NCBI GenBank assembly: GCA_048937405.1
Contig: JBHLNF010000001.1
Span: 160,001 to 224,000, forward strand
Source: Promethearchaeota archaeon
GTDB taxonomy: Archaea; Asgardarchaeota; Lokiarchaeia; Sigyniarchaeales; SOKP01
Length of the DNA stretch: 64,000 nucleotides
Reading direction: 5' to 3'
A program made the position numbers and the translations under genes. Of this stretch, positions 11,333 to 54,895 are shown piece after piece (within the stretch, counting starts at the first letter, position 1; every line of letters starts with the position of its first letter). The notes under the pieces were generated by a model. That model was not told the origin of the DNA and ran no database searches. It saw only the letters and a program-made list of their open reading frames with translations.

Positions 11333-11630
11333 AGAATGAAAAAACTTTAAAAAATTACCAAATAAATCAATTTTTTTTTTTAAAATTTCTATTTTTAAAT
11401 TACTTCCAAATATCTCTACAATCATTTCAATACCATTATTTTTAAAAACCGATTTAATTACTAGTTTTAAATATTCCCTTCGATATATTAAGCTTGATTT
11501 CTGAAGAATAAAGCCGAAATGTTATGTTTGATTTTTTATTAATATTAAGAAATACTTGGTATGAATCTAAAATAATGAATTAATCCGACAGAATAAAAAA
11601 ATAATAGAATAATTAATAAAGAATCGATCA

Positions 11631-12170
11631 TTGATAAAGATATTTTTAGGAAAACAGTGGTTTAATTTATCTGATATAAATAAATATCGGAAGATTGTAA
11701 TGGATAGATATAAAATTGAGCTTGCAAGACAGGGAAATTTTATTGTGGCAATTTTAATGACTCATTTTATTTTTTTTGGCTTTATTGCCAATGTTTATGA
11801 GAAATCGATTGGAGAAGATATATTATTTTTATATAAAGTTTTATTTAGTCCCCAATCTTTTGTTTCAACTTTTCTTCTTATTGCAATTATCTTCTTTATT
11901 GTTTTAAGAGAACCTTTTTTTGAGTACGGAATTAGGAACAGCATAATGCTTACTCCAATTATAGTAGGAATGTCATGGATATGGTATTGGTTTATTGTTG
12001 GATTTGATATCACAATTATTCCTCTCTATTTTATTAAATTTGAAGCTTATTTAACAATTATTAGTATTTTGGGCATTAATTTAACTTCAGCTATTCTTGC
12101 TTCTATTTTAAAAGAAATATATAGAGAACAAAAAAAATCCAAGAAACAAATTATTATAAAAGAAACATAA
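11631..12170 (+). CDS. Hypothetical 4-TM membrane protein inside the ABC cluster (start may be ATG 11700)
   Basis: Four hydrophobic segments; no family recognised. Confidence 0.6.
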   Translation: MIKIFLGKQWFNLSDINKYRKIVMDRYKIELARQGNFIVAILMTHFIFFGFIANVYEKSIGEDILFLYKVLFSPQSFVSTFLLIAIIFFIVLREPFFEYGIRNSIMLTPIIVGMSWIWYWFIVGFDITIIPLYFIKFEAYLTIISILGINLTSAILASILKEIYREQKKSKKQIIIKET

Positions 12171-12214
12171 AAAAATAAGTACAATTTTATAAAAGAAAAA
12201 AATGACTAGGTGTA

Positions 12215-13237
12215 TTGAATTTGAGTATACTTAAATATGTATTTAGAAGATTTTTAACTCTAATACCGGTTTTATTCGGAGTATTGTTGGTTACTTTTAT
12301 ACTCTCAAGGCAAATGCCAGGAGATCCTATATTAGCTCATATGCCTCAACAATACACAATGGCACAATATTTAGCCATGAAACATCGACTTGGATTCGAT
12401 AGACCTCTATTTGACCAATTTTTTATTTACATCGGAAATCTCTTTACAGGAAATTGGGGTGTTTCTGTTTCTATTAATAAAGGTCAAGATGTTTGGGAAC
12501 TTATTTGGGAAAGATTTCCAAGGACATTAGATATTACTATGTTTGCAATGATAATTGCCTCTTATGTGGGGATTAAAACGGGAGTAATTTCAGCAACTCA
12601 CAGAAATAAATCAAAAGACACAATTCTTAGGAGTTTTGCTCTTGTGGGCGTTTCAATACCAATCTTCTGGCTTGGTTTAATCCTACAATTGACGTTAGCC
12701 TATAGACTGAATTTATTTCCAGCTGTGGGGTTTAAAACATTAAGTTATACTGATCCTAAATTAGTTACTGGCTTTAGGATAATTGATTCCTTAATATCGG
12801 GGGAATGGTACTTAATCTGGGATTATTTATATCATCTTGCTCTACCAGTACTATGTTTATCTTTTATAACTCTTGCGTCTATCACAAGACAAACCCGTTC
12901 TAGTATGCTAGAAGTATTGCAACAGGATTATATAAGAACTGCAAGAGCAAAAGGATGTAGAGAGAAAGATGTAATACATAAACATGCTAAAAAAAATGCA
13001 TTGATCCCTACGGTGACAATCATAGGTTTGAATGTTGGTGGTTTATTAGGGGGTGCAATTTTAACCGAAACAACCTTTAACTTGCACGGTGTTGGTGAAT
13101 TATTGCTACGAGCTATTGTGATTAGCGATTATTATGTAATTAATGCAATCGTATTTATGACAACTTTGATATTTATTTTTGTCAATCTATTTACAGATTT
13201 AATATATGCCTATTTGGACCCTCGTATAAAATATTAA
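12215..13237 (+). CDS. dppB: Peptide ABC permease
   Basis: PGDP, QDYIRTARAKG, DLIYAYLDPRI. Confidence 0.92.
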   Translation: MNLSILKYVFRRFLTLIPVLFGVLLVTFILSRQMPGDPILAHMPQQYTMAQYLAMKHRLGFDRPLFDQFFIYIGNLFTGNWGVSVSINKGQDVWELIWERFPRTLDITMFAMIIASYVGIKTGVISATHRNKSKDTILRSFALVGVSIPIFWLGLILQLTLAYRLNLFPAVGFKTLSYTDPKLVTGFRIIDSLISGEWYLIWDYLYHLALPVLCLSFITLASITRQTRSSMLEVLQQDYIRTARAKGCREKDVIHKHAKKNALIPTVTIIGLNVGGLLGGAILTETTFNLHGVGELLLRAIVISDYYVINAIVFMTTLIFIFVNLFTDLIYAYLDPRIKY

Positions 13238-39693: not shown

Positions 39694-39713
39694 TAATTAG
39701 AATAAAAAAAAGT

Positions 39714-39869
39714 GTGAATATCTATGACAAATACCATAGCAGATGCTTGTTGTGCCCTTAAAAATGCAGAAAGAGCACGTAAAAAGGAAGTTATTATTAG
39801 CCCTGCTTCTAAGGTTCTTCAACAAATTCTTCGAATATTCCAAAGACAAGCATATATTGGAGAATTCGA
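39714..39869 (+). repeat. Left copy of a 156-bp imperfect direct repeat (uS8 RBS + first 49 codons); partner at 54740-54895
   Basis: Direct comparison gives 5 mismatches (tct/att in the spacer, ACA/CCA, CTT/CTC, GGA/GGC). Confidence 0.97.
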
Positions 39870-39885
39870 AGTCTGTTTATTATAA
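39724..39885 (+). pseudogene. rps8: Truncated 5' fragment of uS8 at the canonical position after uS14
   Basis: MTNTIADACCALKNAERARKKEVIISPASKVLQQILRIFQRQAYIGEFE then VCLL*; matches the intact copy except T2/P2. Confidence 0.93.
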
Positions 39886-40245
39886 ATATTTTAAAACTAA
39901 ATTTCTAAACTCCTGTACTTTTATAGGTTTTGATATATATTGATTAAAACCAGATGACATAATACGTTCCTTATCTCCTTTCATTGCAAAAGAAGTTACA
40001 GCAATTATTGGTATATCTTTGAATTTTTCGATTTTTCTTAAATTTGAACAAATTTCTGTACCGTTCATTTCTGGTAATTGAATGTCTAGAATAATTAAAT
40101 CTGGATTACCTGATTTGATTAATTCAAATCCTAAATCACCTCTAGTTTCTTCAAAAATTTCAATATCGGGTATTAAATTTAAAATTGCTTTAAATAGCTT
40201 CATATTTTTTTCATTATCCTCAATAACATACACACTTTTTTTCAT
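39880..40245 (-). CDS. Single-domain response regulator (CheY/DivK-like receiver)
   Basis: IEDNEKN, LIILDIQLPEMNG, AVTSFAM, YISKPI. Confidence 0.93.
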   Translation of the reverse strand: MKKSVYVIEDNEKNMKLFKAILNLIPDIEIFEETRGDLGFELIKSGNPDLIILDIQLPEMNGTEICSNLRKIEKFKDIPIIAVTSFAMKGDKERIMSSGFNQYISKPIKVQEFRNLVLKYL

Positions 40246-40401: not shown

Positions 40402-41949
40402 TTAAGGACAAAATTTTAATTTTAGTTCTTGAGCTATATTAGCCATTTTATTTAGTTCTTCATAATCTTTTTCAATTATTGATTTCATGATATCAACCTT
40501 TAACTTTTTAATTTTTTCAAGAGTAATAGAAAATTCTTTATTAATATCCTCATATAATTTGTCTATGTTGCTATAAAGAAGTTGAGCTTGATTTTTATCA
40601 ATAATCTCAGAATTAATTATCTTTCTTTGATAAAAAGTATTTAATTCTTCTAACCAATTCCTTCCAATTTCTCCTATTGGTAGTAGATCATCGATTTTTC
40701 CTGTATTTAGCCCCATTTCAAATTTATCCTTATATTCATCGAATAAATTCCTGAAATAATTGTTAATTTTATTTTCAATGGCTTCTAAGTTAATATTAGG
40801 ATTCATAAAAAGAGTTACAGTATAATTATTATAACTAAAAATATGCATTTTTAAATTACTTCCTCTCAAACCAAAACCGGTTAAATCCTGAATATTTAGT
40901 TCCAAAGAAAATTTCTCCAACGCACTTATAAACATTGGAATCAATTCAAGATCAATTGGAATTATACTATCATCATTTGGAACACTTTGAGAAATATAAT
41001 CTTTAATAGCATTATCATATAATTCAAAATTTAATAACGATAATCCATCTTTATCTGATATTATTGCTCCTATGATCCCTGAATTTTTTTCTTCAGTCGG
41101 AATTTCTAATAAAGGAAAATTTCTCTCATCTTTATCATTTGAGACGGAGAAAAAATTCTCCAAAACTTTTTTGTATATTACCTTACCTTTATTCGTTAAA
41201 CTTAGAAGTGATTCATTTTTTACCTCTTTTACTTCAATATGACCTTTATTAATTAAATTTTCAACTAAATAATTTACCAATTTCTCAGGACGATTCAATT
41301 TTTCATAAAGAATATCTTTAGCAATAATTACATTTTTATCAATTTGATGTATGATTTTCAATGATTCATCAACCATATTCAATAATAATCCTTCATTAGG
41401 TAAGACATCTTGAAGGCAAGTTTTCATAATTTCAATGAAATATGAAAAAGTCTGATGAAAGTATTCCTTTTTCAAACTGGTAAATCGAAAATTTATTAGA
41501 GTATCATTTGAGAAACTATTCTTAATTATCGATCTAATTTCTCTGATTTTCTTTTCACTTACCAAATCTATTTTATGTAATAATACAAAAATAAAGGTGG
41601 ATGGAGTAAGATCATTTCTTAAATCAATAACTTTTCTTACAAAATTAATGATCTCATCATTATTAGATTTAATGTCAATTACTACCAATATTAGTTTAGT
41701 GTCATAAAAAATTCTTTTTTCATCTGTTTCAAGCCATCGTTTATTTTCTTGACCAGCTAGATCAAATATACCAATATCTTCATTTAAACCTGGTAATCGC
41801 AATATTAATGATTCTTCTCCATATGTTGGGTCTAAAGCATATTCTAGTAACTTAGATGAACTTTCTCCTTCAAAAAAGACTTTACGAAGGGTTGTTTTCC
41901 CAGCATTTGGTGGTCCTACAAATATAATTTTTTTTCCTATTTTGATCAC
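40402..41949 (-). CDS. Rag/Gtr1-like small GTPase fused to a winged helix and a longin/roadblock-like domain
   Basis: G1 GPPNAGKT, G2 PTYG, G3 DLAGQ, G4 HKID; wHTH-like LVENLINKGHIE..LSLTNKGK; GAIISDKDGLSL..LIPMFISALEKFSLE. Confidence 0.75.
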   Translation of the reverse strand: MIKIGKKIIFVGPPNAGKTTLRKVFFEGESSSKLLEYALDPTYGEESLILRLPGLNEDIGIFDLAGQENKRWLETDEKRIFYDTKLILVVIDIKSNNDEIINFVRKVIDLRNDLTPSTFIFVLLHKIDLVSEKKIREIRSIIKNSFSNDTLINFRFTSLKKEYFHQTFSYFIEIMKTCLQDVLPNEGLLLNMVDESLKIIHQIDKNVIIAKDILYEKLNRPEKLVNYLVENLINKGHIEVKEVKNESLLSLTNKGKVIYKKVLENFFSVSNDKDERNFPLLEIPTEEKNSGIIGAIISDKDGLSLLNFELYDNAIKDYISQSVPNDDSIIPIDLELIPMFISALEKFSLELNIQDLTGFGLRGSNLKMHIFSYNNYTVTLFMNPNINLEAIENKINNYFRNLFDEYKDKFEMGLNTGKIDDLLPIGEIGRNWLEELNTFYQRKIINSEIIDKNQAQLLYSNIDKLYEDINKEFSITLEKIKKLKVDIMKSIIEKDYEELNKMANIAQELKLKFCP

Positions 41950-43260
41950 TTAAATTTTTTTATTGAAGTAATATATATTTTTTAATTTTTGTTTGATTTG
42001 ACCAATTGTCCAAATTAATTTATTTGCACTAAGAGTTTCTGAAAAACAAACTAAATTTTTAAGATTAAATTTTTGATAATTCAAACTGTTCATAATAATA
42101 TTCAAATTAGAACTTGAGAGAATTAAATGTTCAATTCTATCATTTTTAGATACATTTTCGAAAGTTTTATTTAATTGGGTTATAAGTTTATGCGAATGAT
42201 TGATAATTATCGTGTTAAAATCTTTCGTAATAGATTGTGCTACTATACTATCATTTAAATTAGTAATAAAAAACATAGTTTTTGAAAAATTTGATATCAT
42301 ACTATCCAACAGGTTCTTTAAGTGAAAAGTATATTTTGAAAAATTGCTTAATAATTCATAAAATGCATTATAAAGGCTATAAATTAAATTTGGATAAATA
42401 CTTGTATAATAAATAGACACATCAAATTTCATTTTTAAAATGTTTGTAAGGTCTTTAAGATACTCTTTTCTAGATCCTTTCTCTATTAAATCAATTTTAT
42501 GGATGAAAAGAATTAGTTGAGCAGTATAGGAGTTATCTTGTAAAATTTCAATGACTTGTTTGATATCCTCCATGATTAATTGTTCATTTGTAATCCATGT
42601 TGGATAATCAAAGAGATATACTATAAAGTCAGTATTCTCAAATGCTAGAATTTGGTCATTATTTTTATTATTTTCCAGAAGTTGACTGAGTTCTTGTCCA
42701 GAAGAATCAAATAAACCTACCTTCAAATCTAACCATGAATAAACTGATGGCGATATTCCTCGAGTCGGTTCTAAAGGATTTGTTATTAAATTTATTGGAT
42801 CATATCCTTCAAAGACAATTTTCTTAATAGTTGTTTTTCCTGTACCTGGTCTACCAATTATCAATATCTTTTTAGCTGAAGACTTAATAAAAAAAGTATC
42901 AATTTTCTCTTGGAAATATTTTTTTTTATCATCTTCAGATTTTCCTAAGAATTTTCTGGCAAATTTAATAAATTCAGATTTTTGATTATATAAATTAATC
43001 TTTTCTTTTTCTTCCAGTATAATAAGAATTATTTCATATCCAATCTCAGAAACTTTTGATTTATCACAATAACTAAGTATAATATTATCTTTATATGTAA
43101 TTTCAATTAACTCACCCTTCTTAAAATCATCTTCATAGGAATGAGTCATATATATTTTATTGATTAATTCATCCGTTAGTTTTAATTCTAAAGGATATTT
43201 CAGCTCAAGCGTAGCACCCATTTTAGTATCCCAACTAAAAAACGCTAAACCTTTAACCAT
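41950..43260 (-). CDS. Rag/Gtr1-like small GTPase with N-terminal longin/uDENN-like and C-terminal roadblock-like domains
   Basis: N-terminal FFSWDTKMGATLELKYP; GRPGTGKT, LEPTRG, DSSGQ, FIHKID, YYTSIY; C-terminal MFFITNLNDSIVA. Confidence 0.75.
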   Translation of the reverse strand: MVKGLAFFSWDTKMGATLELKYPLELKLTDELINKIYMTHSYEDDFKKGELIEITYKDNIILSYCDKSKVSEIGYEIILIILEEKEKINLYNQKSEFIKFARKFLGKSEDDKKKYFQEKIDTFFIKSSAKKILIIGRPGTGKTTIKKIVFEGYDPINLITNPLEPTRGISPSVYSWLDLKVGLFDSSGQELSQLLENNKNNDQILAFENTDFIVYLFDYPTWITNEQLIMEDIKQVIEILQDNSYTAQLILFIHKIDLIEKGSRKEYLKDLTNILKMKFDVSIYYTSIYPNLIYSLYNAFYELLSNFSKYTFHLKNLLDSMISNFSKTMFFITNLNDSIVAQSITKDFNTIIINHSHKLITQLNKTFENVSKNDRIEHLILSSSNLNIIMNSLNYQKFNLKNLVCFSETLSANKLIWTIGQIKQKLKNIYYFNKKI

Positions 43261-43266
43261 TAAATC

Positions 43267-45411
43267 TCAACTCTCTATTTTTTCTTTTAATTTTTTAGTT
43301 ATAGTAAAAGTAAATGTTGATCCTGTACCTAATACGCTATTAAATGTTATACTTCCTCCATGTAATTCTACAAGCCTTTTGGTTAATGATAATCCAAGTC
43401 CGGTCCCAGGAACAGAGCGTACATATGTAGAATCTACTCTTTTAAATTCCTTGAAGATCAGAGAAAAATCTTTTTGATCTATTCCAATACCTGTATCATT
43501 TACTTTAAAAACCCATTGACCATATTTTTCTTGTATTTTTACTGTAATTTGACCTTCAAGAGTAAATTTAATAGCATTACTTAAGAGATTCAATAAAATT
43601 TCTTTGAATCGAATTGGATCTGCATAAATATATTTTTTTTCATCTAATCCTTTAATCTTTAATTTAAGGTTCTTTCTATTATACATAGGCTTTAAGCTTG
43701 ATTTAATTTGTTCAAATATGTTATTTAATGAAACCTTTTGAATATTCAAGTTTATTTGTCCAGATTCTATTTTTGATATATCTAAAATATGTTTAATCAT
43801 ATCAAATTGATGTTCTGCAGAATTTTTTATATCGGTAACAAATTCCTTTTGTTCATCATTTATTTGACCATAAACACCCTCTAATAATAAATCAGAAAAT
43901 CCAATAATAGCATTTAAAGGAGTCCTTAATTCATGTGACATTGTAGCCATGAATTCTGTTTTAAACTGAGAAGACTTTACTATTTGATCCATGTATAATT
44001 TCTGCTGTTCAAGGGTTTTATTTAACTCTTTAGTTCTATCCTGAACTTTTTGTTCTAATTCATCTTTAAATTTCTCTTCTAAAAGTTCTGAGGTCTTTTT
44101 TTCAGTAATATCTTTAAAAATCAGTTGAAATAGAGTTCCAGGCTTCTGTTTTATAATAGAAGCTTGAATTTCAACCCAAATACTTTCTCCATCCTGTTTT
44201 TTTAACTCAACCTCAACAGGTTTTGGAAAATTATTTTCAAAATTGGCATGAAAAATTTTCTTAAAATAAAGCTTAACTTCAAAAGGAAAGAAGTTGATAA
44301 GCTCATCTATTGATTTTTGAATAAAATAATCCCTTTCATAACCAAATATTTTGTCTGTAGTAAAATTAGCATCAACAACAATTCCATTAAAGTTTATTAT
44401 TAATATGGCATTTGGTGAGTTATCAAATAAATCTTTGTATCTTTTTTCAACAAAAATTTGATCAGTTATATCCCTCGAAATAACAAGAATTCTCACTTGC
44501 CCATCTTTATTTATAAAATTTTTAAAATTACATTCATGCCATAGCCAATGGCCCTCTTTATGTTTAATTCGCAATTTTATAGTACTTTTTTCACTTTTTA
44601 ATGGATCTTTTAATAATTTTGATATCTTTCCTTTATCTTTTGGATGAAGAAAATCCAGATATGATTTTTCCAATATCTCTTTCTTTTTGTATCCTAGCAG
44701 TTTAAATGCTATTTTTTCATTAAAATATTTAACTATTAATTTCAAACTAAGAATTATGATTAAATCATTTATATTTTCTTCAATGCGAATATGTTTCTCT
44801 TCTGATTCTTTCAACATTTTTTTTATTATATAATGTTCTATACCATTTCCAATAATTTGTGAAGATAATCGTAAAATTGATAACTGTGTCTCATTCGACT
44901 CTTTATGTATTGAATCATTTAAATATCCAATAAATCCTGCTAAGTCTTTTCTAATATATAGTGGAAACACCAATAGAGATCTGATATTATTAAGATTTAA
45001 TAACCTTTTTGTAGCTTTTGCTTCATCAGTTAAACTAGAAATATCATAAATATTGATAATTTTTCCTTTTCTAAGTTGATTATTCCACCATGGAAATTTT
45101 AAAAGCCATGAATTGTTAAAGTATTCAAATAACGGTTTAATTCCTTTTGCACACCATTCATACGTATTTTTTAAATTAATCTCATTAAAATTAATAATAT
45201 ATAAAACAACCCGACTCGCTTTGTTTAAAAACCCAATATCACGTAATGTAGCATTAATAATATCATTAATCTCGATATCTCCAAAGAATCGAGATGAAAT
45301 TGTTGAAATCAAAGTTTCTAAATCTGACCAAAATTGAACCAGACATTTTACATTTTGTTTTACATCATTTTTTTCTCCAAAAATATTTTCTTTGTTGTGA
45401 ATTCCACTCAT
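43267..45411 (-). CDS. Cytoplasmic sensor histidine kinase (GAF-PAS-PAS-HisKA-HATPase)
   Basis: NTYEWCAKGI GAF, FLHPKD PAS, MSHELRTPLNAIIGF, NLLSNAIKF, DTGIGI, GTGLGL. Confidence 0.93.
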   Translation of the reverse strand: MSGIHNKENIFGEKNDVKQNVKCLVQFWSDLETLISTISSRFFGDIEINDIINATLRDIGFLNKASRVVLYIINFNEINLKNTYEWCAKGIKPLFEYFNNSWLLKFPWWNNQLRKGKIINIYDISSLTDEAKATKRLLNLNNIRSLLVFPLYIRKDLAGFIGYLNDSIHKESNETQLSILRLSSQIIGNGIEHYIIKKMLKESEEKHIRIEENINDLIIILSLKLIVKYFNEKIAFKLLGYKKKEILEKSYLDFLHPKDKGKISKLLKDPLKSEKSTIKLRIKHKEGHWLWHECNFKNFINKDGQVRILVISRDITDQIFVEKRYKDLFDNSPNAILIINFNGIVVDANFTTDKIFGYERDYFIQKSIDELINFFPFEVKLYFKKIFHANFENNFPKPVEVELKKQDGESIWVEIQASIIKQKPGTLFQLIFKDITEKKTSELLEEKFKDELEQKVQDRTKELNKTLEQQKLYMDQIVKSSQFKTEFMATMSHELRTPLNAIIGFSDLLLEGVYGQINDEQKEFVTDIKNSAEHQFDMIKHILDISKIESGQINLNIQKVSLNNIFEQIKSSLKPMYNRKNLKLKIKGLDEKKYIYADPIRFKEILLNLLSNAIKFTLEGQITVKIQEKYGQWVFKVNDTGIGIDQKDFSLIFKEFKRVDSTYVRSVPGTGLGLSLTKRLVELHGGSITFNSVLGTGSTFTFTITKKLKEKIES

Positions 45412-45476: not shown

Positions 45477-46166
45477 TCATTCACAATGATCTTTGGGAAA
45501 TTGTTCTTCAAGAGCTTTCATAATATCGTTGCAAGAATCCAAGATCATGTTAATGTAATTCATAATCTCAGGTCTAGATATTTTTCTATTTATATTTTGA
45601 TCTATTATTAACTCACCAAATCCTCGAATTGTGTTAATTCCACTCCGAATCTGCATATTTATGGATTCTAAAGGTAGGATTTCATCTTTTTGCATATAAA
45701 TCTTATTTATTTCTTTAATAAAATTCTCAAATTCATTTTTATCATCAGACAAAATTTTATTACGTTTAATTTTATGAAAAATCATTCCAATTTTTTTGAA
45801 ATGAAGTATTGGTATTATAGAATAGCCAACATCCCGAAGTAGTATTATAGCATATAATTGTTTTCCTCCCCTTGCTGATAAATCCTCTATTTCGATCTTA
45901 TAGATTTGGGCATAAAAATTATTAAAATCTAATATAACAAATTGATTTTTAGTATTTAGCGCGTCTCTTAAAAGATTTTTTACAAATTCTTCATTTTTCA
46001 GAGGAATTTGAGAATATAGGGCTCTTGGACCTAATGTATGATCATATTTTCCAATAATCATAATAAAAGGATATTTTTCTAAATTATGCTTAAGAGTTGA
46101 ATAAATATCAAGATTTTCCTCTTCACGTTTATTTTTAAATTGGATATCTTTTATAATTTCTTTCAT
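45477..46166 (-). CDS. Folliculin/SMCR8-like longin domain fused to a degenerate, His-less HisKA-like domain
   Basis: YDHTLGPRALY and IEDLSARGGKQLYAIILL; C-terminal INMQIRSGINTIRGFGELI aligns with SHELRTPLNAIIGFSDLL of the neighbouring kinase. Confidence 0.62.
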   Translation of the reverse strand: MKEIIKDIQFKNKREEENLDIYSTLKHNLEKYPFIMIIGKYDHTLGPRALYSQIPLKNEEFVKNLLRDALNTKNQFVILDFNNFYAQIYKIEIEDLSARGGKQLYAIILLRDVGYSIIPILHFKKIGMIFHKIKRNKILSDDKNEFENFIKEINKIYMQKDEILPLESINMQIRSGINTIRGFGELIIDQNINRKISRPEIMNYINMILDSCNDIMKALEEQFPKDHCE

Positions 46167-46375: not shown

Positions 46376-47860
46376 ATGTCGGAATCCGCAAATACTATTA
46401 TAAAATATTTCTGCGATCGCTTTTTAGATATTGAATACTATCCTTCTAATTTGAAGGCAATTTTGGATTTTGATTTGCATAAAATAAAAAATATTAAAAA
46501 AGAAGATTTGCTGAAATTCCAGAAATTTAATATAAAAACCTTTCGAGATCTATGTAATTTAGATCAATCTGATTATGATCGGTTGATAAATCATTCATTT
46601 ATAGAAAAAAATCTACTAAATAATATTATTATTGCAGCAACTTTAATTGCTAATTCATGGAATAAAAGAAGTATTTACTTGAATAAACCAAAAATGAAAG
46701 TTGTTGTGGCTGGTCTTGATTTTGCAGGTAAAACATCTTTAATTAATAGATTGATTCACGATTATAACTACAATGATATGAATAATATTGAGCCAACAAT
46801 AGGGACAAATATAGAAGAATATCACTCAAAATGGCTGAATTTAATATTATGGGACTTAGGTGGCCAAAAGGATAATATAAATGAATATTTAGAATCTCCA
46901 GAAAAATTTTTTGTACAATTAGATGTTTTAATTTTTGTCATTGATGCCCAAGATGATAATAGATATAATGAAGCGGTTCGTTATTTGAATGATTTAATTG
47001 AAATATTTACATTTTTAAATGAAAATCCATATATCCTTGTATTGATAAATAAAGTAGATTCTGATATAGCAGAGGATCCAGATTTTCAAATTAAACTTGA
47101 ATATTTAATGGATAAAATAACTAATATCTTTATTAATAGTCAAAAATCATGGAATTTTGAGCTCATACCTACAAGTATCTATAATTTTTATTCTTCAGAA
47201 CCCGAGATTGCTAAAAGCATTAAAAAAATCTTTACAAAAGAAAAATCAGAAACACATTTGGATACTATAACGGAAATTAATGAGAAATTAGAAAGAATTT
47301 TAAATATAAACCTAGAATTAATGGATAAAATAGTATCTGATTTTTCCAAAATAAAACAAACCTTATTTAGATTTACACACTCTAATGTTTCTCAATCACT
47401 ATTTAACATTCCAATTCAGGATGTTCCCTGCAAGAATAGTTTTGATAAACAAAAAACAAATCAGAAAGATAGGACAAAGAAAAAAGAATCGAAAAAAAAA
47501 GAATTAAAAAAGAGAGAAAGAATAAAAAAAGTTATAGGTCCCCCGAAACGTTTAGAATCTATTATATCACCAAATGAAATTACACAAAATATAAAAAATA
47601 ATCATAAAATTACTGAAGAAAAATTGAAAGAAATAAAAAACGATTTAACCCCAACTCCTAAATCGTCTGATTTACGATCAACCCCACCAATAGCTCCTAA
47701 AAAAGGTTATTTAAGTAAAGCTGATCTTAAACCTCCACCCCCGCCACCAAAAATTGCAATTAAAAATGATACTTCATTACAAGGGAATAGAAAACAAATT
47801 ATTTCAGAATTAAAGGAATTATTTATAAGAAGAGGGTTAGTCCCTCATAAAAATATTTAA
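46376..47860 (+). CDS. Arf-like small GTPase with N-terminal helical domain and a long Lys/Pro-rich C-terminal tail
   Basis: VVAGLDFAGKTS, EPTIG, WDLGGQ, FVIDA, NKVD; PPPPPK near the C-terminus. Confidence 0.82.
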   Translation: MSESANTIIKYFCDRFLDIEYYPSNLKAILDFDLHKIKNIKKEDLLKFQKFNIKTFRDLCNLDQSDYDRLINHSFIEKNLLNNIIIAATLIANSWNKRSIYLNKPKMKVVVAGLDFAGKTSLINRLIHDYNYNDMNNIEPTIGTNIEEYHSKWLNLILWDLGGQKDNINEYLESPEKFFVQLDVLIFVIDAQDDNRYNEAVRYLNDLIEIFTFLNENPYILVLINKVDSDIAEDPDFQIKLEYLMDKITNIFINSQKSWNFELIPTSIYNFYSSEPEIAKSIKKIFTKEKSETHLDTITEINEKLERILNINLELMDKIVSDFSKIKQTLFRFTHSNVSQSLFNIPIQDVPCKNSFDKQKTNQKDRTKKKESKKKELKKRERIKKVIGPPKRLESIISPNEITQNIKNNHKITEEKLKEIKNDLTPTPKSSDLRSTPPIAPKKGYLSKADLKPPPPPPKIAIKNDTSLQGNRKQIISELKELFIRRGLVPHKNI

Positions 47861-48400: not shown

Positions 48401-50746
48401 ATGCGGAAAAAAATTCAATCATTAGAAAAATTCAAAATAAAAAATAGACCTTTTAATCATAATATTTTAGAGGTTATAGTAGAAATAAATCTAGATGGAA
48501 AGTTTATTTGTTTTAGTCCACAGGTTTATGATCTTTTCGGTTTTCGACCAAAAAAGTTAATCAAGCTAAATGAACAAAATTTCATCCATCCAGAAGATTT
48601 ATCACTTTATAGAGAAGTAATTGATAAGGTAAAAAACTTTAAAGAAACATTTATTGTAGATTTAAGAGTGAAGCACAATAAGGGATATTATGTCCCAATT
48701 TCATTAAAGGTTAATTTAATCTTACCTAATAATACAAAAAAAATAATTGGTATAATAAGAGATATTTCAGATATCAAAATTTCCAAGTTAAAATTTAAAG
48801 AATCTAAAGAGAAATATCTAAACATTATCAATAATATGATGGAAGGATATTTTGAAATTGATCTTAAGGGAAATTTTTTATATGCTAATGTGTATTTCTG
48901 TAAAACATTAAATTATTCTAAGGAAGAATTAATAGGAAAAAATTATCATTTTATTTATGAAAAAAAGACATGCGAACGTTTATTTAATATATTCACCCAA
49001 ATATATAAGACAGGGATACCTCATCCTCCAGAAGAAGTAATTAAAGTGGTAACAAATAAGGGTAAACTATTATATGTTGAAGGATCTATTCATTTATTAT
49101 ATGATTCTGAAGGATATAAGGTTGGATTTTATGGCTTAGCTCATGATACAACAAAAGAGATAAAAAACAATCAAAAATTAAAAGAATTCGAATTGAAATA
49201 TAGCAATATTCTCGAAAATATGATGGAAGGGTATTATGAAACTGATCTTAGGGGAAATTTTATATATGTTAATGCTGAGTATTGCAAAATTTTGGGATAT
49301 TCAAAAAAAGAATTATTAGGAAAGGATTATAGAACCTTTTATAATGTAGAGGGATTGAGTAATTTACAGAGTATTTTTACCAAAATATATAAAACTGGGA
49401 TACCTCACGCTCCAACAGGATTAGTAAAATTGGTGACAAAGAAAGGTAAACTTATATATTTTGAAGGTCCTGTTGATTTAATATATAGTTCGAAAGGAAA
49501 AAAGATAGGATTTTATGGGCTTATTCGTGATATAACAAAAAGAAAAATTGCGGAACAAAAATTAAAAGAGTCCGAAGAGAAATATCGAAGCATACTCGAA
49601 AATATGATGGAAGGATATTATGAAGTGGATTTAGAAAACAATATCATTTTTTTTAATGATTCTTTTAATAAGATATTAGGACATCCAAAAGAGAAATTAT
49701 CAAATGAAAAATTTGATTGGTTTTTAAGTTCTCATAGTAAAAAGAGATTTTCCTTACTTTTTAATAATTTATTAGAGAATAAAATGTCATTTTTAATTTC
49801 CCAGTTTGAAATAATAAATCAAAAAGGAGAAATTATAAATGTCGAAACTTCAATATATCAAAAACAAGATATGAAAGGAAATATAATCGGATTCGGAGGA
49901 TTATTGCGGGACATTTCTGAAAGGATGCAAATCGAAGAAATGAGAGAAGAATTTACTGAAGAACTCCAAAATCAAGTAGTTCAAAGAACTCAGGAACTAA
50001 ATGAAGCATTAGAAAAGCAAGAATTATACATTCAAGAGATATTGAAGTCTTCTCGTTTTAAAAGCGAATTTATGTCTGTGATGTCCCATGAGCTGAGGAC
50101 ACCTATGAATGCCATCATAGGTTTTTCTGATCTTTTGATGGAGGGGGATTTTGGTCAACTTAATGAAAATCAAAAAGACTTCTTATATGATATAAAAGGG
50201 TCTGCTAACCACTTACTAAATATAATTAATCATATACTTGATATCTCGAAAATAGAGTCAGGTAATTTGAATTTGAAGATAAAAAAGATTCAACTGGATA
50301 TAGTTATAAAACAAGTCAAAGGAACACTTAAAACTTTATTTGATAATAAGAATTTAACATTTAAGGTGATTGGGTTGAAAAAGAATAAGGTTATCAATGT
50401 AGATCCTATAAGGTTTAAAGAGATTCTTTTCAACCTATTAAGCAACGCAATTAAATTCACCTTAAAAGGAATTATTACTTTGAAAATTTCTGAAGATGAG
50501 ATGCTATGGAAATTTGACGTGATTGATACAGGTATTGGTATAGCTAAGGAAAATTTAGGGTTTATTTTTATGGATTTTAGAAGAATTGATGATCCCCATG
50601 TAAATTCAACAGAAGGAACTGGACTTGGCCTTTCTGTTACAAAAAGACTAGTCGAGCTCCATGGTGGAAGTATCAGTTTTACAAGCGAATTTGGGAAAGG
50701 ATCTACATTTTCCTTTACAATTCCTAAAGATTTAAAAGAAGGGTAA
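48401..50746 (+). CDS. Cytoplasmic sensor histidine kinase (4x PAS-HisKA-HATPase)
   Basis: Repeated NMMEGY.E.DL PAS starts; MSHELRTPMNAIIGF, NLLSNAIKF, GTGLGL. Confidence 0.93.
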   Translation: MRKKIQSLEKFKIKNRPFNHNILEVIVEINLDGKFICFSPQVYDLFGFRPKKLIKLNEQNFIHPEDLSLYREVIDKVKNFKETFIVDLRVKHNKGYYVPISLKVNLILPNNTKKIIGIIRDISDIKISKLKFKESKEKYLNIINNMMEGYFEIDLKGNFLYANVYFCKTLNYSKEELIGKNYHFIYEKKTCERLFNIFTQIYKTGIPHPPEEVIKVVTNKGKLLYVEGSIHLLYDSEGYKVGFYGLAHDTTKEIKNNQKLKEFELKYSNILENMMEGYYETDLRGNFIYVNAEYCKILGYSKKELLGKDYRTFYNVEGLSNLQSIFTKIYKTGIPHAPTGLVKLVTKKGKLIYFEGPVDLIYSSKGKKIGFYGLIRDITKRKIAEQKLKESEEKYRSILENMMEGYYEVDLENNIIFFNDSFNKILGHPKEKLSNEKFDWFLSSHSKKRFSLLFNNLLENKMSFLISQFEIINQKGEIINVETSIYQKQDMKGNIIGFGGLLRDISERMQIEEMREEFTEELQNQVVQRTQELNEALEKQELYIQEILKSSRFKSEFMSVMSHELRTPMNAIIGFSDLLMEGDFGQLNENQKDFLYDIKGSANHLLNIINHILDISKIESGNLNLKIKKIQLDIVIKQVKGTLKTLFDNKNLTFKVIGLKKNKVINVDPIRFKEILFNLLSNAIKFTLKGIITLKISEDEMLWKFDVIDTGIGIAKENLGFIFMDFRRIDDPHVNSTEGTGLGLSVTKRLVELHGGSISFTSEFGKGSTFSFTIPKDLKEG

Positions 50747-50750
50747 AGAT

Positions 50751-51131
50751 TTGATAAAAAAAATATTTATCATTGATGATTATGAGAGAAATTTAAGGTT
50801 ATATAAAGCGACATTTAATGGTGCCCCTAATTTAGATATCATTACGGAGAGAGATGGGATAAAAGGTTTAGAGATGTTAAAAGAGAGTAATCCAGATCTG
50901 ATTATTTTAGACTATAAACTAACAAATATAACTGGTGTTGAGATATGCAAAGAGTTAAGAAAAATAGAAAAATTCAAAGATATTCCAATAATTATGGTTT
51001 CTTCAACCCCTATTGAAAAAGATGTTGATAGAGCAACCTATTTTAAGGAAGCTGGTTTTAATTTATATTTCTCAAAACCAATAAACATTAAAAAATTTAG
51101 AGAAATCATAAAAAATCTATTATTCAAATAA
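50751..51131 (+). CDS. Single-domain response regulator
   Basis: IIDD, PDLIILD, MVSS, FSKPI. Confidence 0.9.
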   Translation: MIKKIFIIDDYERNLRLYKATFNGAPNLDIITERDGIKGLEMLKESNPDLIILDYKLTNITGVEICKELRKIEKFKDIPIIMVSSTPIEKDVDRATYFKEAGFNLYFSKPINIKKFREIIKNLLFK

Positions 51132-51376: not shown

Positions 51377-52114
51377 TTAGGCAAGAATGTAAGGTTTTTC
51401 GTTTATCTCAGGAATCAAAATTATGAAATTACTACCCTTTTTATAATCCCCTTTCACTTTATCTTCCACCCAGATATAACCATTATATTTCTTTATTAAT
51501 TTTTTAACAAGAGTTAGTCCAAAACCCATTCCATTCAAACATTCTCGGATTTCATACTCTTTTTGAAAAATAGATTTTTTCCTTGCATTGGTAATACCAA
51601 CTCCGTTATCAATAAATTCGATTTTAACAAAAGAAGTATTATTCAGAATTATTTTTGAGACGTTAATTAATATTTGAATATTTGAGTTTTTATTGTGATA
51701 TATTGCATTAAATATAATATTCTCAAATACATTCTGCAATAATTTATCTCCTTGAACATATAATCCATTAAAATATGATTTTCGAATGCTTGAATAGTTG
51801 AAATTAATTTTTATATTATTTTCAGGAAATGATGATTCAATATATTCTATGGATGTCTTTAATAAATGGAGAACATCAATAGGTTGAAGAGAATTGTTAG
51901 AATCATCAAAATTAGTTACATTTTTCACATTTGAAATTATTTGAATTCCCCTCATCACCTGTTTATTTATAATATTCATACAAATTCTCATTTGTTCAGG
52001 TTTGGTTAAAGAAAAAGAGCAAAGTTGTAGAGAAGACTGAATAATATGAAGAATAGTCCCAAAATCATGAATTAAAATATCTCCATATGTATCAAATACA
52101 TTTTTTTTCTCTAT
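51377..52114 (-). CDS. Sensor-less histidine kinase (HisKA + HATPase); frame extends upstream of the ORF-track start to an apparent ATA start
   Basis: In-frame upstream of ATG 51991: IEKKNVFDTYGDILIHDFGTILHIIQSSLQL (H-box), bounded by TGA within GGTGA; NIIFNAIYH, DNGVGI, GMGFGL. Confidence 0.75.
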   Translation of the reverse strand: MEKKNVFDTYGDILIHDFGTILHIIQSSLQLCSFSLTKPEQMRICMNIINKQVMRGIQIISNVKNVTNFDDSNNSLQPIDVLHLLKTSIEYIESSFPENNIKINFNYSSIRKSYFNGLYVQGDKLLQNVFENIIFNAIYHNKNSNIQILINVSKIILNNTSFVKIEFIDNGVGITNARKKSIFQKEYEIRECLNGMGFGLTLVKKLIKKYNGYIWVEDKVKGDYKKGSNFIILIPEINEKPYILA

Positions 52115-52328
52115 TGTTTGTCACCAATTATGATGCTAATTATTTTTATTGAATTTTTTTTATCTTTCTTATAAAGATTTAATTGTATTTTATGGTAAAA
52201 TTTGGATTACAATACTATAAAGATTGACATTTCTATAAAAAAACTTATATTTAAATCTTTTTTTTCCAAAAAGGTGTATTACAATAAAGATCATTTAATT
52301 TTTGAAATGAGTTTTTCATCTGTAAATT

Positions 52329-52730
52329 TTAACTTATAATACTATTATTTATTTTAATGTCCTTCCTTTTTAATATTTTTAAAACAGTTTTAAATAATTT
52401 TTCTAAAGAAAATGGTTTATCTAAAAAATATTTTGCTCCTTTGGATAAAGCTTCAATCTTAATTTTATTATCTGCACTAGCAAATATTATTTTTGCTGTA
52501 TTTTCAATCTTTAAGATTTCTTCAAGGATTTGAATACCGTTTTTATTTGGCATTCGATAATCCAAAATTATAATATCAGGTTTTTTATATAAATTCTTGA
52601 ATAATGAAATGGCTTCTTCTCCATCACCTGTTAGACCTAATATCTTATAACCCTTACTTTCTAGAGCCATTTTGTAAAACCTTCTTAATTGGTTATCATC
52701 CTCTGCTATAAAGATTGATGACATATTCAT
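52329..52730 (-). CDS. Single-domain response regulator
   Basis: IAEDD, PDIIILDYRMPNKNG, FASA, LDKPF; overlaps the kinase stop (ATGA). Confidence 0.92.
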   Translation of the reverse strand: MNMSSIFIAEDDNQLRRFYKMALESKGYKILGLTGDGEEAISLFKNLYKKPDIIILDYRMPNKNGIQILEEILKIENTAKIIFASADNKIKIEALSKGAKYFLDKPFSLEKLFKTVLKILKRKDIKINNSIIS

Positions 52731-54007
52731 TGTACCTCCGGAAGTTTAAGAATAAATTTACTCCCTTTGGTATAATCCTCTGGAATCTTGTTTTCAACCC
52801 AAATTTTAGCATTAAATATATCTAAAATACTTTTGACAAGCGATAATCCTAATCCTAATCCACTAAGGCTTTTATTCATCCCAAAATCCCTAGTAAAAAG
52901 ACTTTGTTTCCTTGAATCGGGAATACCTACTCCATTGTCAATAAACTCGACCTTAAAAAATTTTTTTCCCTCTTCTTGAATGTGAGAGATCTTGATTAAT
53001 ATCTCAACAATTGAATTATCATTATGAATAACAGCATTAAGGAGAATATTTTCAAATATATCAAATATGAATTTATTTGCCACAATGAAAAAATTTTGTA
53101 GCTTGGTTTCAATTAGAATTTTCATTTCCCTTTTCTCTGTCCTTTTTTTGAGGTTATTAATTGCTTCTTCTAATATTTCTTTAAAATCTAGTTTTTCTAA
53201 AAATGTTTCAGATTCTAAAATTATGCTAAATTTTCTAACATTCCTAATTAAGTGTGTTCCCCTGTCAATTTGTTCTTTAATCAATTTTATTGATTCGTTT
53301 TCAGTTAAATCTCCAGTAATTTTTAAGTCTTGTTCAAATAATTCTAAACCCATTAATATGTTTTGAAGAATGTTATTAATATCATGAACGAAAAGATCCT
53401 TATAAAAACATTCTCTATTATACGCTTCTTGATATTTTTCAATAGATTTCTCGAAATTGGATACAGAAAACCATGTTATGAATGCAATAAGTACATAAAT
53501 GTTTAATCCAATAAAATTAGGAAAGAATCCATTGATAAAGCAAATAAGTAAATTGACAAAAATAATGAAAAATGTCATAATAAAACTCATATATGGGGTT
53601 ATTAAAAATCCAGCCATAATAATAGGTAACACAAGCTGAAGAAGAGATCTGCCTAAGACAAGTTCATAGGGAGTATCTGAGAGAAAAATAAGTATAGTTA
53701 CTAGTACTAGAAAAGTGCTAATGGCTAATTTATTAGACAAATAGTTATTTACCAAGAAAATAACAATACCTCCGAAAAAAGCAAATGTGGATAAACCTAA
53801 TATCAAAATTGTCTCTTTATTTCCTCCAATAGGAGATCCAATGATGAAGAAACTAAGATATATTAAAATAATCAAACCATCTGCAGATTCTATTCCAAGA
53901 AGTAAAATATTGAGAACTTTTTTTTTTCTCATTTCCTCTAGATCTTTTTTATGAATCAAAAAAAAATAATTTAGAATTCTCTTTATAAATGAACTCACCA
54001 TTTGCAC
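52727..54007 (-). CDS. Membrane-bound histidine kinase (~6 TM + HisKA + HATPase)
   Basis: TM bundle, LFVHDINNILQ, NILLNAVIH, DNGVGI, GLGLGL. Confidence 0.9.
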   Translation of the reverse strand: MQMVSSFIKRILNYFFLIHKKDLEEMRKKKVLNILLLGIESADGLIILIYLSFFIIGSPIGGNKETILILGLSTFAFFGGIVIFLVNNYLSNKLAISTFLVLVTILIFLSDTPYELVLGRSLLQLVLPIIMAGFLITPYMSFIMTFFIIFVNLLICFINGFFPNFIGLNIYVLIAFITWFSVSNFEKSIEKYQEAYNRECFYKDLFVHDINNILQNILMGLELFEQDLKITGDLTENESIKLIKEQIDRGTHLIRNVRKFSIILESETFLEKLDFKEILEEAINNLKKRTEKREMKILIETKLQNFFIVANKFIFDIFENILLNAVIHNDNSIVEILIKISHIQEEGKKFFKVEFIDNGVGIPDSRKQSLFTRDFGMNKSLSGLGLGLSLVKSILDIFNAKIWVENKIPEDYTKGSKFILKLPEVQ

Positions 54008-54739
54008 CCTTAACTAAAAAACAAGAATGATTATAGAATAATAGAATTAATATTTAAATTTAGCCATATTTGTCAGGAATAATTAGCAAACAAATAAATA
54101 CAACTCTTCTCAAATTTCAAGATTGTTATTAATTAACTTATTTCTTCCTATTTTTGTCTAAAAAATAATTTTAGATAATTTATAATAATATCTTCAGTTT
54201 TTAAGCTTTTTAAGAGTAAAGGAAGATTAAATAAGAATCTTGGATTAGTATCAATATATTAGACAAGTTAATAAACATTTTTGGTTATAATAAGAATAGA
54301 AGAGAAATTATATAAAATAAAATTTGAGTTAACATTGGATTTCGCCCTCTATTAACCTTAAAGTAGGTTATTCTCCTCCTCACATTTTAAACTCAAGTTT
54401 TTTCTTCCCTTCTCCTCAAGTTTTAAGATAAGGTTGTTAAGTAGAGATAAATCCTAATATGACTCTTTCAATGTTTAGATCCTTGTTTCTAGGTCAAGCG
54501 CAATCAAATTTTTATTACTGGAAAGAAAAAGCAAAAGAAGATAATTAATTTTTTCTAATTAAATAATTTTTAAGTTTTATGGTTTTATTTTAGATTTCAA
54601 TATCAATTAATAAAATTAAAATTTAATCCATTACTAATTAGAACAATACGGAGTAATGGATGGAAAAAACTAAAATAATAATTCTGGATATTGTTCCTGA
54701 TTTTATTAATTAAAATAAGATAAGAAATTTTAGGAAAGA

Positions 54740-54895
54740 GTGAATAATTATGCCAAATACCATAGCAGATGCTTGTTGTGCCCTCAAAAATGCAGAAAGA
54801 GCACGTAAAAAGGAAGTTATTATTAGCCCTGCTTCTAAGGTTCTTCAACAAATTCTTCGAATATTCCAAAGACAAGCATATATTGGCGAATTCGA
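54740..54895 (+). repeat. Right copy of the 156-bp rps8 5' repeat
   Basis: Matches 39714-39869 with 5 mismatches. Confidence 0.97.

Follow-up and report, generated by a model that had tools for sequence, protein, structure and literature searches.

The minus strand of a 64,000-nucleotide (nt) stretch of the genome of a Loki-type Asgard archaeon (Promethearchaeota archaeon; contig JBHLNF010000001.1 of assembly GCA_048937405.1, positions 160,001 to 224,000; the whole stretch is termed the window below, and coordinates are counted from its first letter) codes for two multidomain GTPases, P0002 and P0001, from directly successive genes. We are highly confident that both belong to the Rag family and that they have the following architectures: P0002 is, by its predicted structure, a Rag-type G-plus-roadblock protein with an additional N-terminal longin domain, and P0001 combines a G domain with a winged helix, a longin-like domain and a helical tail. 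They are part of a tight cluster of five components, namely two Rag-like GTPases, a folliculin-type longin, a sensor kinase and a receiver, which has been kept across dozens of Lokiarchaeial genomes. The best overall explanation, which we rate as somewhat better than an even prospect, is that P0001 and P0002 constitute a paired Rag-family switch with an associated kinase/receiver/longin module. The original prediction for this locus, which was made from the sequence alone, had centered on the two GTPases; the conserved link to the histidine kinase, the receiver and the folliculin-type longin was not part of it and is the most informative feature of the system.

Both proteins carry Rag-family G domains

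A Rag-type HKID G4 motif and a glutamine-containing G3 motif (DSSGQ and DLAGQ) had initially been pointed out in both proteins, and both motifs proved to be invariant in 50 homologs of each. More generally, the P-loop glycine and lysine, the switch I threonine, DxxGQ and HKxD are without variation in the 50-sequence alignment of either family; in the alignment of P0002 the invariant residues are G136, G141, K142, T166, R167, D185, G188, Q189, H254, K255, D257, T286 and S287. Given this invariance of the G motifs, P0001 and P0002 are probably working GTP-binding switches which have retained the catalytic glutamine.

Multiple lines of evidence place these G domains with the Rags ahead of Arf and Roc, as had been predicted. 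First, against a Pfam cut-off of 22 bits, the Gtr1_RagA profile (PF04670) matches P0002 with 79.8 bits (E = 2.6e-22; next MMR_HSR1 with 25.7 and Arf with 21.6 bits) and P0001 with 53 bits (next Ras with 28.8 and Arf with 27.2 bits), the scores of Arf, Ras and Roc each being below 29 bits for both proteins. Second, the best sequence match of P0002 among solved structures is RagA (5e-15), with Gtr1 also being recovered, and that of P0001 is Gtr1 (1.6e-8), followed by Gtr2 and RagA; the alignment with RagA takes in its HKMD motif (HKID here), the 'TSIW' G5 region and the helix after G5. Third, in Foldseek searches with the AlphaFold2 models (mean predicted local distance difference test score, pLDDT, of 81 for P0002 and 77 for P0001), the top 12 matches of P0002 are RagA/Gtr1, over ~310 columns that include the G and roadblock domains, and full-length RagA/Gtr1 chains rank first for P0001, with ~400 columns aligned. 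Fourth, a VIA-align search with the whole P0001 model, which effectively covered residues 1-185 only, ranks RagD first for the G domain (Z 18.1, root-mean-square deviation 2.2, 167 residues aligned), followed by RagC (17.1), LokiRagO (16.9) and Gtr1 (16.2), with LRRK2 Roc (15.3), Arf6 (15.2) and SR-beta (~15) below the Rags. The margin of Rag over Arf is modest by structure and large by sequence profile.

In a tree of 34 G domains, all from this genome, P0001, P0002 and two G-roadblock paralogs of 300 amino acids (aa) form one clade (99/94 support), and by this sequence comparison the G domains of the pair share an origin as sister paralogs. A shared 'FEGE...LL' stretch ahead of switch I marks the Lokiarchaeial subfamily to which both belong. 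The same 4.47-megabase genome holds 35 Gtr1_RagA matches, several of them clustered (e.g., C26:69982-95485), which amounts to a very large Rag/Arf-like expansion within a single genome.

Domain architectures of P0002 and P0001

The secondary-structure maps of the AlphaFold2 models bear out the domain orders that had been proposed for the two proteins, namely longin-GTPase-roadblock-like for the one and GTPase-winged helix-turn-helix (wHTH)-longin-like-helical tail for the other (Table 1). In P0002, the predicted roadblock domain comes directly after the G domain, as in the Rag/Gtr layout, and the Foldseek alignments continue through the RagA/Gtr1 roadblock. Sequence profiles of its longin and roadblock domains recovered nothing significant from solved structures and Pfam; the putative longin domain is assigned by its predicted topology together with the published longin-GTPase-roadblock (LGR) class (PMC10933270).

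P0001 displays a modified Rag layout, in that its C-terminal domain has the strand-helix order of a longin and is separated from the G domain by the winged helix and a disordered linker. In an ESM-Atlas model, residues 288-420 resemble Robl_LC7 and LAMTOR3 clusters (template modeling, TM, scores 0.62-0.72), as well as an archaeal cluster in which a winged helix and a roadblock domain are combined. A sequence profile of the longin domain and tail gave no significant match among solved structures and Pfam, with a faint MAPKK1_Int signal in 2 of the 50 members. Likewise, profile-profile comparisons detected no relationship of the three longin/roadblock domains with each other or with the folliculin-type longin of the neighborhood, nor of the P0001 tail with the kinase-like hairpin found there. 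The predicted longin/roadblock domains of both proteins are recognizable by predicted structure only. The tail, modeled as three long helices, might form a bundle or a coiled coil.

Three independent lines of evidence agree in identifying the middle domain of P0001 as a MarR-like winged helix. A profile of residues 181-268 built from 50 homologs matches solved MarR-family regulators from helix 2 to the wing (best E = 5e-5); winged-helix Pfam families (HTH_34, HTH_45, DUF6293_C, TrmB, HTH_24 and MarR) are matched in 25-28 of the 50 members; and the ESM-Atlas model of residues 187-266 resembles MarR clusters (TM 0.75-0.81). The initial reading of this domain as a wHTH thus stands. Profile and shape searches further uncovered free-standing relatives of either half of P0001, in the form of G-plus-winged-helix proteins of ~300 aa and longin-plus-tail proteins of ~250 aa. 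Because both halves occur as separate proteins, P0001 looks like a fusion of a G-plus-winged-helix module and a longin-plus-tail module.

Table 1. Features of the locus in window coordinates; domain limits and secondary structures are from AlphaFold2 predictions.
Feature	Coordinates	Strand	Length or residues	Description
P0002	41950-43260	-	436 aa	Longin-GTPase-roadblock Rag-like GTPase
P0002 longin-order domain	42895-43260	-	residues 1-122	Two strands-helix-three strands-two helices; pLDDT ~80-90
P0002 G domain	42346-42873	-	residues 130-305	G1 GRPGTGKTT, switch I PTRG, G3 DSSGQ, G4 HKID, G5 TSI
P0002 roadblock domain	41965-42336	-	residues 309-432	Helix-two strands-helix-three strands-helix
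P0001	40402-41949	-	515 aa (512 aa if the start is ATA at 41940)	G domain, winged helix, longin-like domain, helical tail
P0001 G domain	41410-41949	-	residues 1-180	G1 GPPNAGKTT, switch I PTYG, G3 DLAGQ, G4 HKID, G5 TSL
P0001 winged helix	41152-41400	-	residues 184-266	Helices 184-206, 211-218 and 222-234, hairpin 238-251, helix 253-266
P0001 linker			residues 268-289	Predicted to be disordered
P0001 longin-order alpha/beta domain	40702-41076	-	residues 292-416	Longin order; roadblock/longin superfold
P0001 tail	40411-40692	-	residues 420-513	Three long helices, 420-445, 452-492 and 496-513; pLDDT 73-88
P0003 sensor histidine kinase	43267-45411	-	714 aa	Cytoplasmic sensor (solubility judged by eye): weak GAF, two PAS, HisKA, HATPase (Pfam)
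P0004 folliculin-type longin protein	45477-46166	-	229 aa	GP-Arg loop and conserved ARG motif, then kinase-dimerization-like hairpin without the histidine
P0005 CheY-like receiver	39880-40245	-	121 aa	Single domain, Pfam Response_reg E = 9e-24; 156 nt downstream of P0001
Third multidomain GTPase	46376-47860	+	494 aa	Divergent from the P0004 gene; G domain at residues 101-270
Second PAS histidine kinase and its receiver	48401-51131	+		Three 384-nt tandem repeat units in the PAS region (48790-49714)
Further kinase pieces and a receiver	51377-54007	-
Direct repeat, first copy	39709-39869		161 nt
Direct repeat, second copy	54735-54895		161 nt

The P0002-P0001 pair is conserved in order and orientation

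The two genes had been described as lying without a gap at 41949/41950, and the open reading frames (ORFs) and the junction sequence agree with this: the P0002 stop codon (TAA, 41950-41952) is followed on the very next base by the GTG codon at 41949 that opens P0001. An ATA codon 9 nt beyond this GTG would give a P0001 of 512 aa, which is the length of most homologs, and would reproduce their 'M-x-K-K-I-I-F' N-terminus. The start codon is thereby uncertain and the gap is either 0 or 9 nt. No Shine-Dalgarno-like sequence is seen 5' of either candidate start. The stop codon of the P0003 kinase gene lies 6 nt ahead of the P0002 ATG. As judged by this arrangement, P0002 and P0001 would be made from one tightly packed transcript; the sequencing runs listed as containing this DNA are all from sediment and soil metagenome DNA, with no RNA run among them.

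Each of the two proteins has more than 180 homologs, reaching down to ~40% identity, which argues that the pair is not a chance assembly. The source names shown for these homologs are all Lokiarchaeota/Promethearchaeota or generic. We collected 46 loci from a species-level genome collection, of which 43 were informative, and in 36 of these P0002 precedes P0001 on the same strand at a distance of -9 to +24 nt. Across the abutting loci the orthologs of P0002 are 49-74% identical and those of P0001 40-80%. One exception to the abutting order is a distant homolog (30%) on a contig labeled Bathyarchaeota. For several of the loci, which were taken from metagenome bins, the labels are doubtful: close or distant copies of the pair occur on contigs L001, L039 and L043, labeled Patescibacteria (P0001 80% identical), Bathyarchaeota (30%) and Odinarchaeota, and at least the Patescibacteria and Odinarchaeota cases appear to reflect misbinning, not gene transfer. 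With a profile of the C-terminal half of P0001, members were detected in a single archaeal order: they occur in 21 of 25 genomes sampled from the family of the window and in one of two from its sister family, and 124 genomes representing 25 further families of the phylum gave none; full-length P0001 copies are present in ~11 of the matched genomes.

A conserved neighborhood of kinase, receiver and folliculin-type longin

According to the ORF listing of the window, the genes for P0004, P0003, P0002, P0001 and P0005 follow each other in this order in a tight run on the minus strand, within AT-rich DNA (G+C content of the window ~27%). The receiver is the best-conserved neighbor: of the 31 full-length loci in which the two GTPase genes abut, 25 carry an ortholog (66-88% identical) at most 2.2 kb from the pair. 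In most of them the receiver gene is divergent and just upstream of P0002, and in the window's own clade it is downstream of P0001. In 17 loci the ortholog of the PAS histidine kinase is convergent with P0001 and begins or ends 13-124 nt beyond it on the downstream side; in the clade of the window it lies directly upstream of P0002. As it is kept through at least two different gene orders, the linkage to the kinase and the receiver has survived rearrangement.

Orthologs of P0004 lie within ~8 kb of the pair in 13 loci, and all seven examined loci with such an ortholog have a GTPase of 290-320 aa from the same subfamily immediately adjacent to it. P0004 matches the Pfam Folliculin profile with E = 1.5e-3, below the cut-off, and 14 orthologs retain 'GKYDxxLGP' followed by Arg/Lys, as well as 'SARGGKQ'. 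Motifs of exactly this kind have been surveyed in Asgard longins, and the question of their client GTPases has been raised (PMC12290439). The C-terminus of P0004 aligns weakly with the H-box of the neighboring kinase, the histidine being replaced.

A predicted two-GTPase switch and its alternatives

The longin and roadblock folds serve dimerization in Rag, Ragulator, folliculin-FNIP and GATOR1. Since these folds are universally used in this manner in those systems, we propose that P0001 and P0002 act jointly as a two-GTPase switch, joined through their roadblock/longin-fold domains in the way of the Rag/Gtr dimers. A heterodimer had also been put forward in the original prediction, and the support for it is indirect, consisting of the conserved abutting genes and the precedent of the Rags. 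The apparently soluble PAS histidine kinase and the CheY-like receiver would then set the nucleotide state of this switch, with the phosphorylated receiver, which is devoid of an output domain, binding one of the proteins of the module and shifting its nucleotide state. The folliculin-type longin P0004 may be the GTPase-activating protein (GAP) for one of the two Rag-like proteins, and the output could be transmitted via the winged helix of P0001 and/or its helical tail, either to DNA or to another protein. Unlike the family, motifs, architectures, gene order and linkage, the physical heterodimerization, the phosphorelay control, the GAP assignment and the output are steps that we infer. A heterodimer coupled to a phosphorelay comes close to an even bet. 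A more elaborate version, in which a two-component phosphorelay and a folliculin-type GAP are wired directly to an archaeal Rag-type heterodimer, with the winged helix of one subunit carrying the output to DNA, appears to us quite unlikely.

As regards the output alone, P0001 might be a GTP-gated transcription factor, in line with the GTP-gated DNA-binding protein considered in the original prediction, with its nucleotide state, set together with P0002, controlling promoter occupancy through the winged helix in a pathway that would run from the kinase via the receiver and the GTPase to DNA. We consider this somewhat unlikely; it could hold alongside the heterodimer model. In its favor, the fold is truly that of a MarR-like winged helix, with conserved basic positions at K198, K211, K217, K235, K254 and K256, and, as the receiver is without an output domain, any transcriptional output must come from another component. 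The net charge of its core (residues 199-262; family mean +0.9, this protein +4) falls between the values for TrmB-type (0.0) and MarR-type (+2.4) domains encoded elsewhere in this genome. An argument against DNA binding from the acidity of the whole region (mean -1.9) was dropped, since this core-only comparison erased the difference. Moreover, at two further sites of the genome (L047, G000:C27:43800-45700; L048, G000:C7:401300-402700), a gene for an ArsR-type winged-helix protein of 111-113 aa is directly upstream of one for a small GTPase of 180-182 aa with an HKxD G4 motif. There, a winged helix and a Rag/Arf-like GTPase form a two-gene unit, which suggests that GTPases are repeatedly paired with DNA-binding proteins. 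However, the match to MarR is confined to the winged-helix core (profile positions 17-78, MarR residues 34-98); the MarR dimerization helices are absent from P0001, the flanks being formed by the G domain and the disordered linker; the wing is three residues shorter than that of the matched MarR and lacks its Asp-Arg-Arg stretch; and positions 222, 226 and 230 of the predicted recognition helix are mostly acidic or neutral. The domain has a MarR-like fold and is not a member of the MarR family proper. Winged helices also act as protein-binding modules, as in ESCRT-II, the cullins and the PCI proteins, and several families of the protein-binding kind are among the weak matches of the P0001 domain.

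An alternative to joint action is that P0001 and P0002 each homo-oligomerize, via the roadblock or the longin-plus-tail domain, and are cotranscribed as sequential or parallel members of a pathway, with one protein, for example, regulating a client of the other. Going by the titles of their Protein Data Bank entries (8yl2, 8zla and 9m28), the Rag-like GTPases of Lokiarchaeial origin with solved structures comprise one homotetramer and one monomer, which weighs against a heterodimer and makes homo-oligomers a real, if unlikely, alternative. Homodimers were also predicted by Tran et al. for several longin- or roadblock-bearing GTPases of strain MK-D1 (PMC10933270). Further, the dimerization-type domains of P0001 and P0002 differ in strand-helix order, that of P0001 being longin-like instead of roadblock-like. 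This makes a literal Rag-style roadblock-roadblock dimer impossible, and a P0001-P0002 dimer would, going by the models, need a mixed roadblock-longin or a longin-longin interface. In one genome of the Promethearchaeia (L023:6439-9512, 11139-12407), the P0001-type gene is present twice in tandem (36% and 42% identical to P0001), and 1.6 kb from these the P0002-type gene lies on the other strand, an arrangement that likewise sits more easily with separate oligomers. Against these stand the abutting stop and start, kept in 36 of 43 loci over a wide range of identity, which is typical of subunits made in a fixed ratio, and the relationship of the two G domains as sister paralogs, reminiscent of the A-type and C-type Rag subunits. 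Heterodimers through these folds are, moreover, the rule in the eukaryotic Rag, Ragulator, folliculin-FNIP and NPRL2-NPRL3 complexes (PMC10933270).

Three further observations weigh against the paired switch and its proposed regulators. First, in genomes of the Promethearchaeum type, including MK-D1, no LGR gene directly adjoins that of the P0001 type (37-40% identical); there, receiver genes precede the P0001-type gene and the LGR gene is located ~2 kb downstream in three cases, MK-D1 among them. This nearest LGR gene is only 25-27% identical to P0002. Second, in most of the other loci a GTPase of ~290 aa of the same subfamily comes directly after the folliculin-type longin and is a more obvious client for it than either member of the pair. 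Third, gene neighborhood alone is no proof that the kinase and the receiver act on the GTPases. On balance, we still favor the two-GTPase switch.

With regard to the family assignment, the switch I motif of both proteins, PTxG, is Arf-like, the corresponding sequence of Arf being PTIG (supplementary alignment of PMC10933270), and the subfamily therefore combines Rag hallmarks with some Arf-like traits, in keeping with a published tree in which Asgard proteins formerly called Arf-like fall near Rag and outside the Arf clade (PMC11914678). That the proteins are in truth Arf-like and the comparison with Rag misleading, as this motif, the name 'ADP-ribosylation factor-like protein' given by NCBI to many homologs and the position of Arf6 and SR-beta just 2-3 Z units under the Rags for the P0001 G domain might suggest, is very improbable in the face of that phylogeny, the lead of Gtr1_RagA over Arf by 26 bits in P0001 and 58 bits in P0002, the HKxD G4 in place of the NKxD of Arf, the alignment of the G5 TSI motif and the next helix with RagA, and the Rag-type C-terminal roadblock domain of P0002.

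Relationship to known systems

The closest counterparts of the pair are the eukaryotic Rag/Gtr GTPases (RagA/B-RagC/D and Gtr1-Gtr2), whose sequences, profiles and structures match both G domains best and which share with them the HKxD G4, the DxxGQ G3 and a TSI-type G5; their G-plus-roadblock layout is seen again in P0002. They, too, consist of two paralogous subunits, which in the present case are encoded together and predicted to be partners, and folliculin, the GAP of RagC/D, finds a parallel in the folliculin-type longin gene nearby. However, the eukaryotic proteins lack the extra N-terminal longin of P0002 and the inserted winged helix, longin-order domain and helical tail of P0001. Further, both archaeal proteins are nearer to RagA/Gtr1 by sequence, with no clear split into an A-type and a C-type, and their gene partners are a histidine kinase and a receiver rather than Ragulator and TORC1.

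Among archaea, Tran et al. (2024) described LGR, LG and GXLX architectures of Rag-like proteins in Promethearchaeum syntrophicum MK-D1, with X standing for regions of unknown function, and stated the function of Asgard Rag-like GTPases to be unknown (PMC10933270). Their proteins belong to the same subfamily and have the same domain orders as our pair: the MK-D1 locus (L042) has a P0001-type GXLX gene (38% identical), with an LGR gene ~2 kb away. The same study reports an AlphaFold2-predicted, roadblock-mediated heterodimer for one operon pair of MK-D1. The present locus differs in that the first X can be identified as a MarR-like winged helix and in that the LGR and GXLX genes abut. It also differs in its conserved kinase/receiver/longin neighborhood, GTPase genes having been stated to lie generally outside operons with regulators (PMC10933270). 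The solved LokiRagO (8yl2) and LokiRagM (8zla, 9m28) are Rag-like G-plus-roadblock proteins from the same phylum; both are among the Foldseek matches of both models. In contrast to the pair, they have a length of ~300 aa, are without longin, winged helix and tail, and were reported as a homotetramer and a monomer. Neither gave a significant direct sequence match to P0001 or P0002 at E <= 0.1.

A similar logic, with a GTPase, a roadblock-fold protein and a kinase or receiver encoded together, is seen in the actinobacterial conservons (CvnA kinase, CvnB roadblock, CvnC and CvnD GTPase) and in the MglA/MglB/RomR system of Myxococcus. In the conservons, the roadblock protein has the role of a GAP and CvnC probably that of an exchange factor (PMC13343842), and group 3 of MglA has a receiver-winged-helix neighbor (PMC4316618). 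However, their GTPases are of the MglA type and not the Rag type, their regulators are separate proteins, and the lineages are bacterial. The locus described here does not have the conservon layout: its regulator domains are fused, its gene order is another, its PAS-bearing kinase looks soluble by eye, CvnA being a membrane kinase, and it has no separate roadblock or CvnC gene. The likeness is one of functional analogy, not of membership.

Finally, with its GP loop and ARG motif, P0004 is comparable to folliculin-FNIP, GATOR1 and the Asgard GP-motif longins (PMC12290439). Fusions of longins to two-component domains have been noted in Asgard archaea, along with a proposal that two-component systems with longin regulators of 'eukaryotic' type are at the center of their growth control (Liu et al., 2021, bioRxiv 10.1101/2020.10.19.343400), and the combination of a longin with a kinase-type hairpin in P0004 fits this class. 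The survey of GP-motif longins left the client GTPase open (PMC12290439); here a Rag-like pair, and elsewhere further Rag-like genes, are linked to such a candidate GAP.

Novelty and implications

Asgard Rag-like GTPases, their longin and roadblock fusions and the exact LGR and GXLX architectures (PMC10933270) are already known, as are Lokiarchaeial Rag-like structures (8yl2, 8zla and 9m28). The view of the original prediction that the architecture is unusual was thus overstated, both architectures having been catalogued in MK-D1, although it holds to the extent that the X region had been left unidentified there. New are the recognition that X is a winged helix with a MarR-like fold, the LGR-then-GXLX pair as a conserved and probably cotranslated unit, and its link to a specific receiver, a PAS kinase and a folliculin-type longin; none of the three is mentioned in the literature that we searched.

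We regard the locus as a good experimental entry point rather than as a surprise, and it could show how Rag signaling was wired before the emergence of eukaryotes. If a Rag heterodimer does operate here with a phosphorelay and a GAP, this would be energy or nutrient sensing in the prokaryotic style, built from parts of the eukaryotic Rag-folliculin branch of TORC1 signaling. It would also identify client GTPases of the Asgard GP-motif longins and offer a testable picture of the role of Rag prior to lysosomes and TOR. If, on the other hand, the two proteins act separately, the locus would merely be another example of the large Asgard GTPase expansion.

Other features of the locus and genome

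The whole cluster of GTPase, kinase and receiver genes is bracketed by the two copies of a 161-nt direct repeat, which are 96% identical and 15,026 nt apart, and the bracketed segment of 15 kb splits a cluster of ribosomal-protein genes (uL24, eS4 and uL5 upstream). In light of these repeats and of the position within a ribosomal-protein run, it seems that a single 15-kb block with the entire signaling module was inserted or relocated. On the far side of the folliculin-type longin gene, this block also contains a divergently transcribed third multidomain GTPase, whose G domain scores 84.7 bits with Arf and 80.9 bits with Gtr1_RagA and falls in a different clade of the genome's GTPase tree than the pair. 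It is followed by a second PAS histidine kinase with tandem repeat units in its PAS region and a receiver of its own, and then by more kinase pieces and a receiver on the minus strand (Table 1). Elsewhere in the genome (L049, G000:C28:439000-443000), two closely related G-roadblock paralogs of 300 and 305 aa from the subfamily of the pair flank a gene for a longin-GTPase of 345 aa, and these may represent a second Rag-like pair of this organism that is nearer to the canonical Rag layout.

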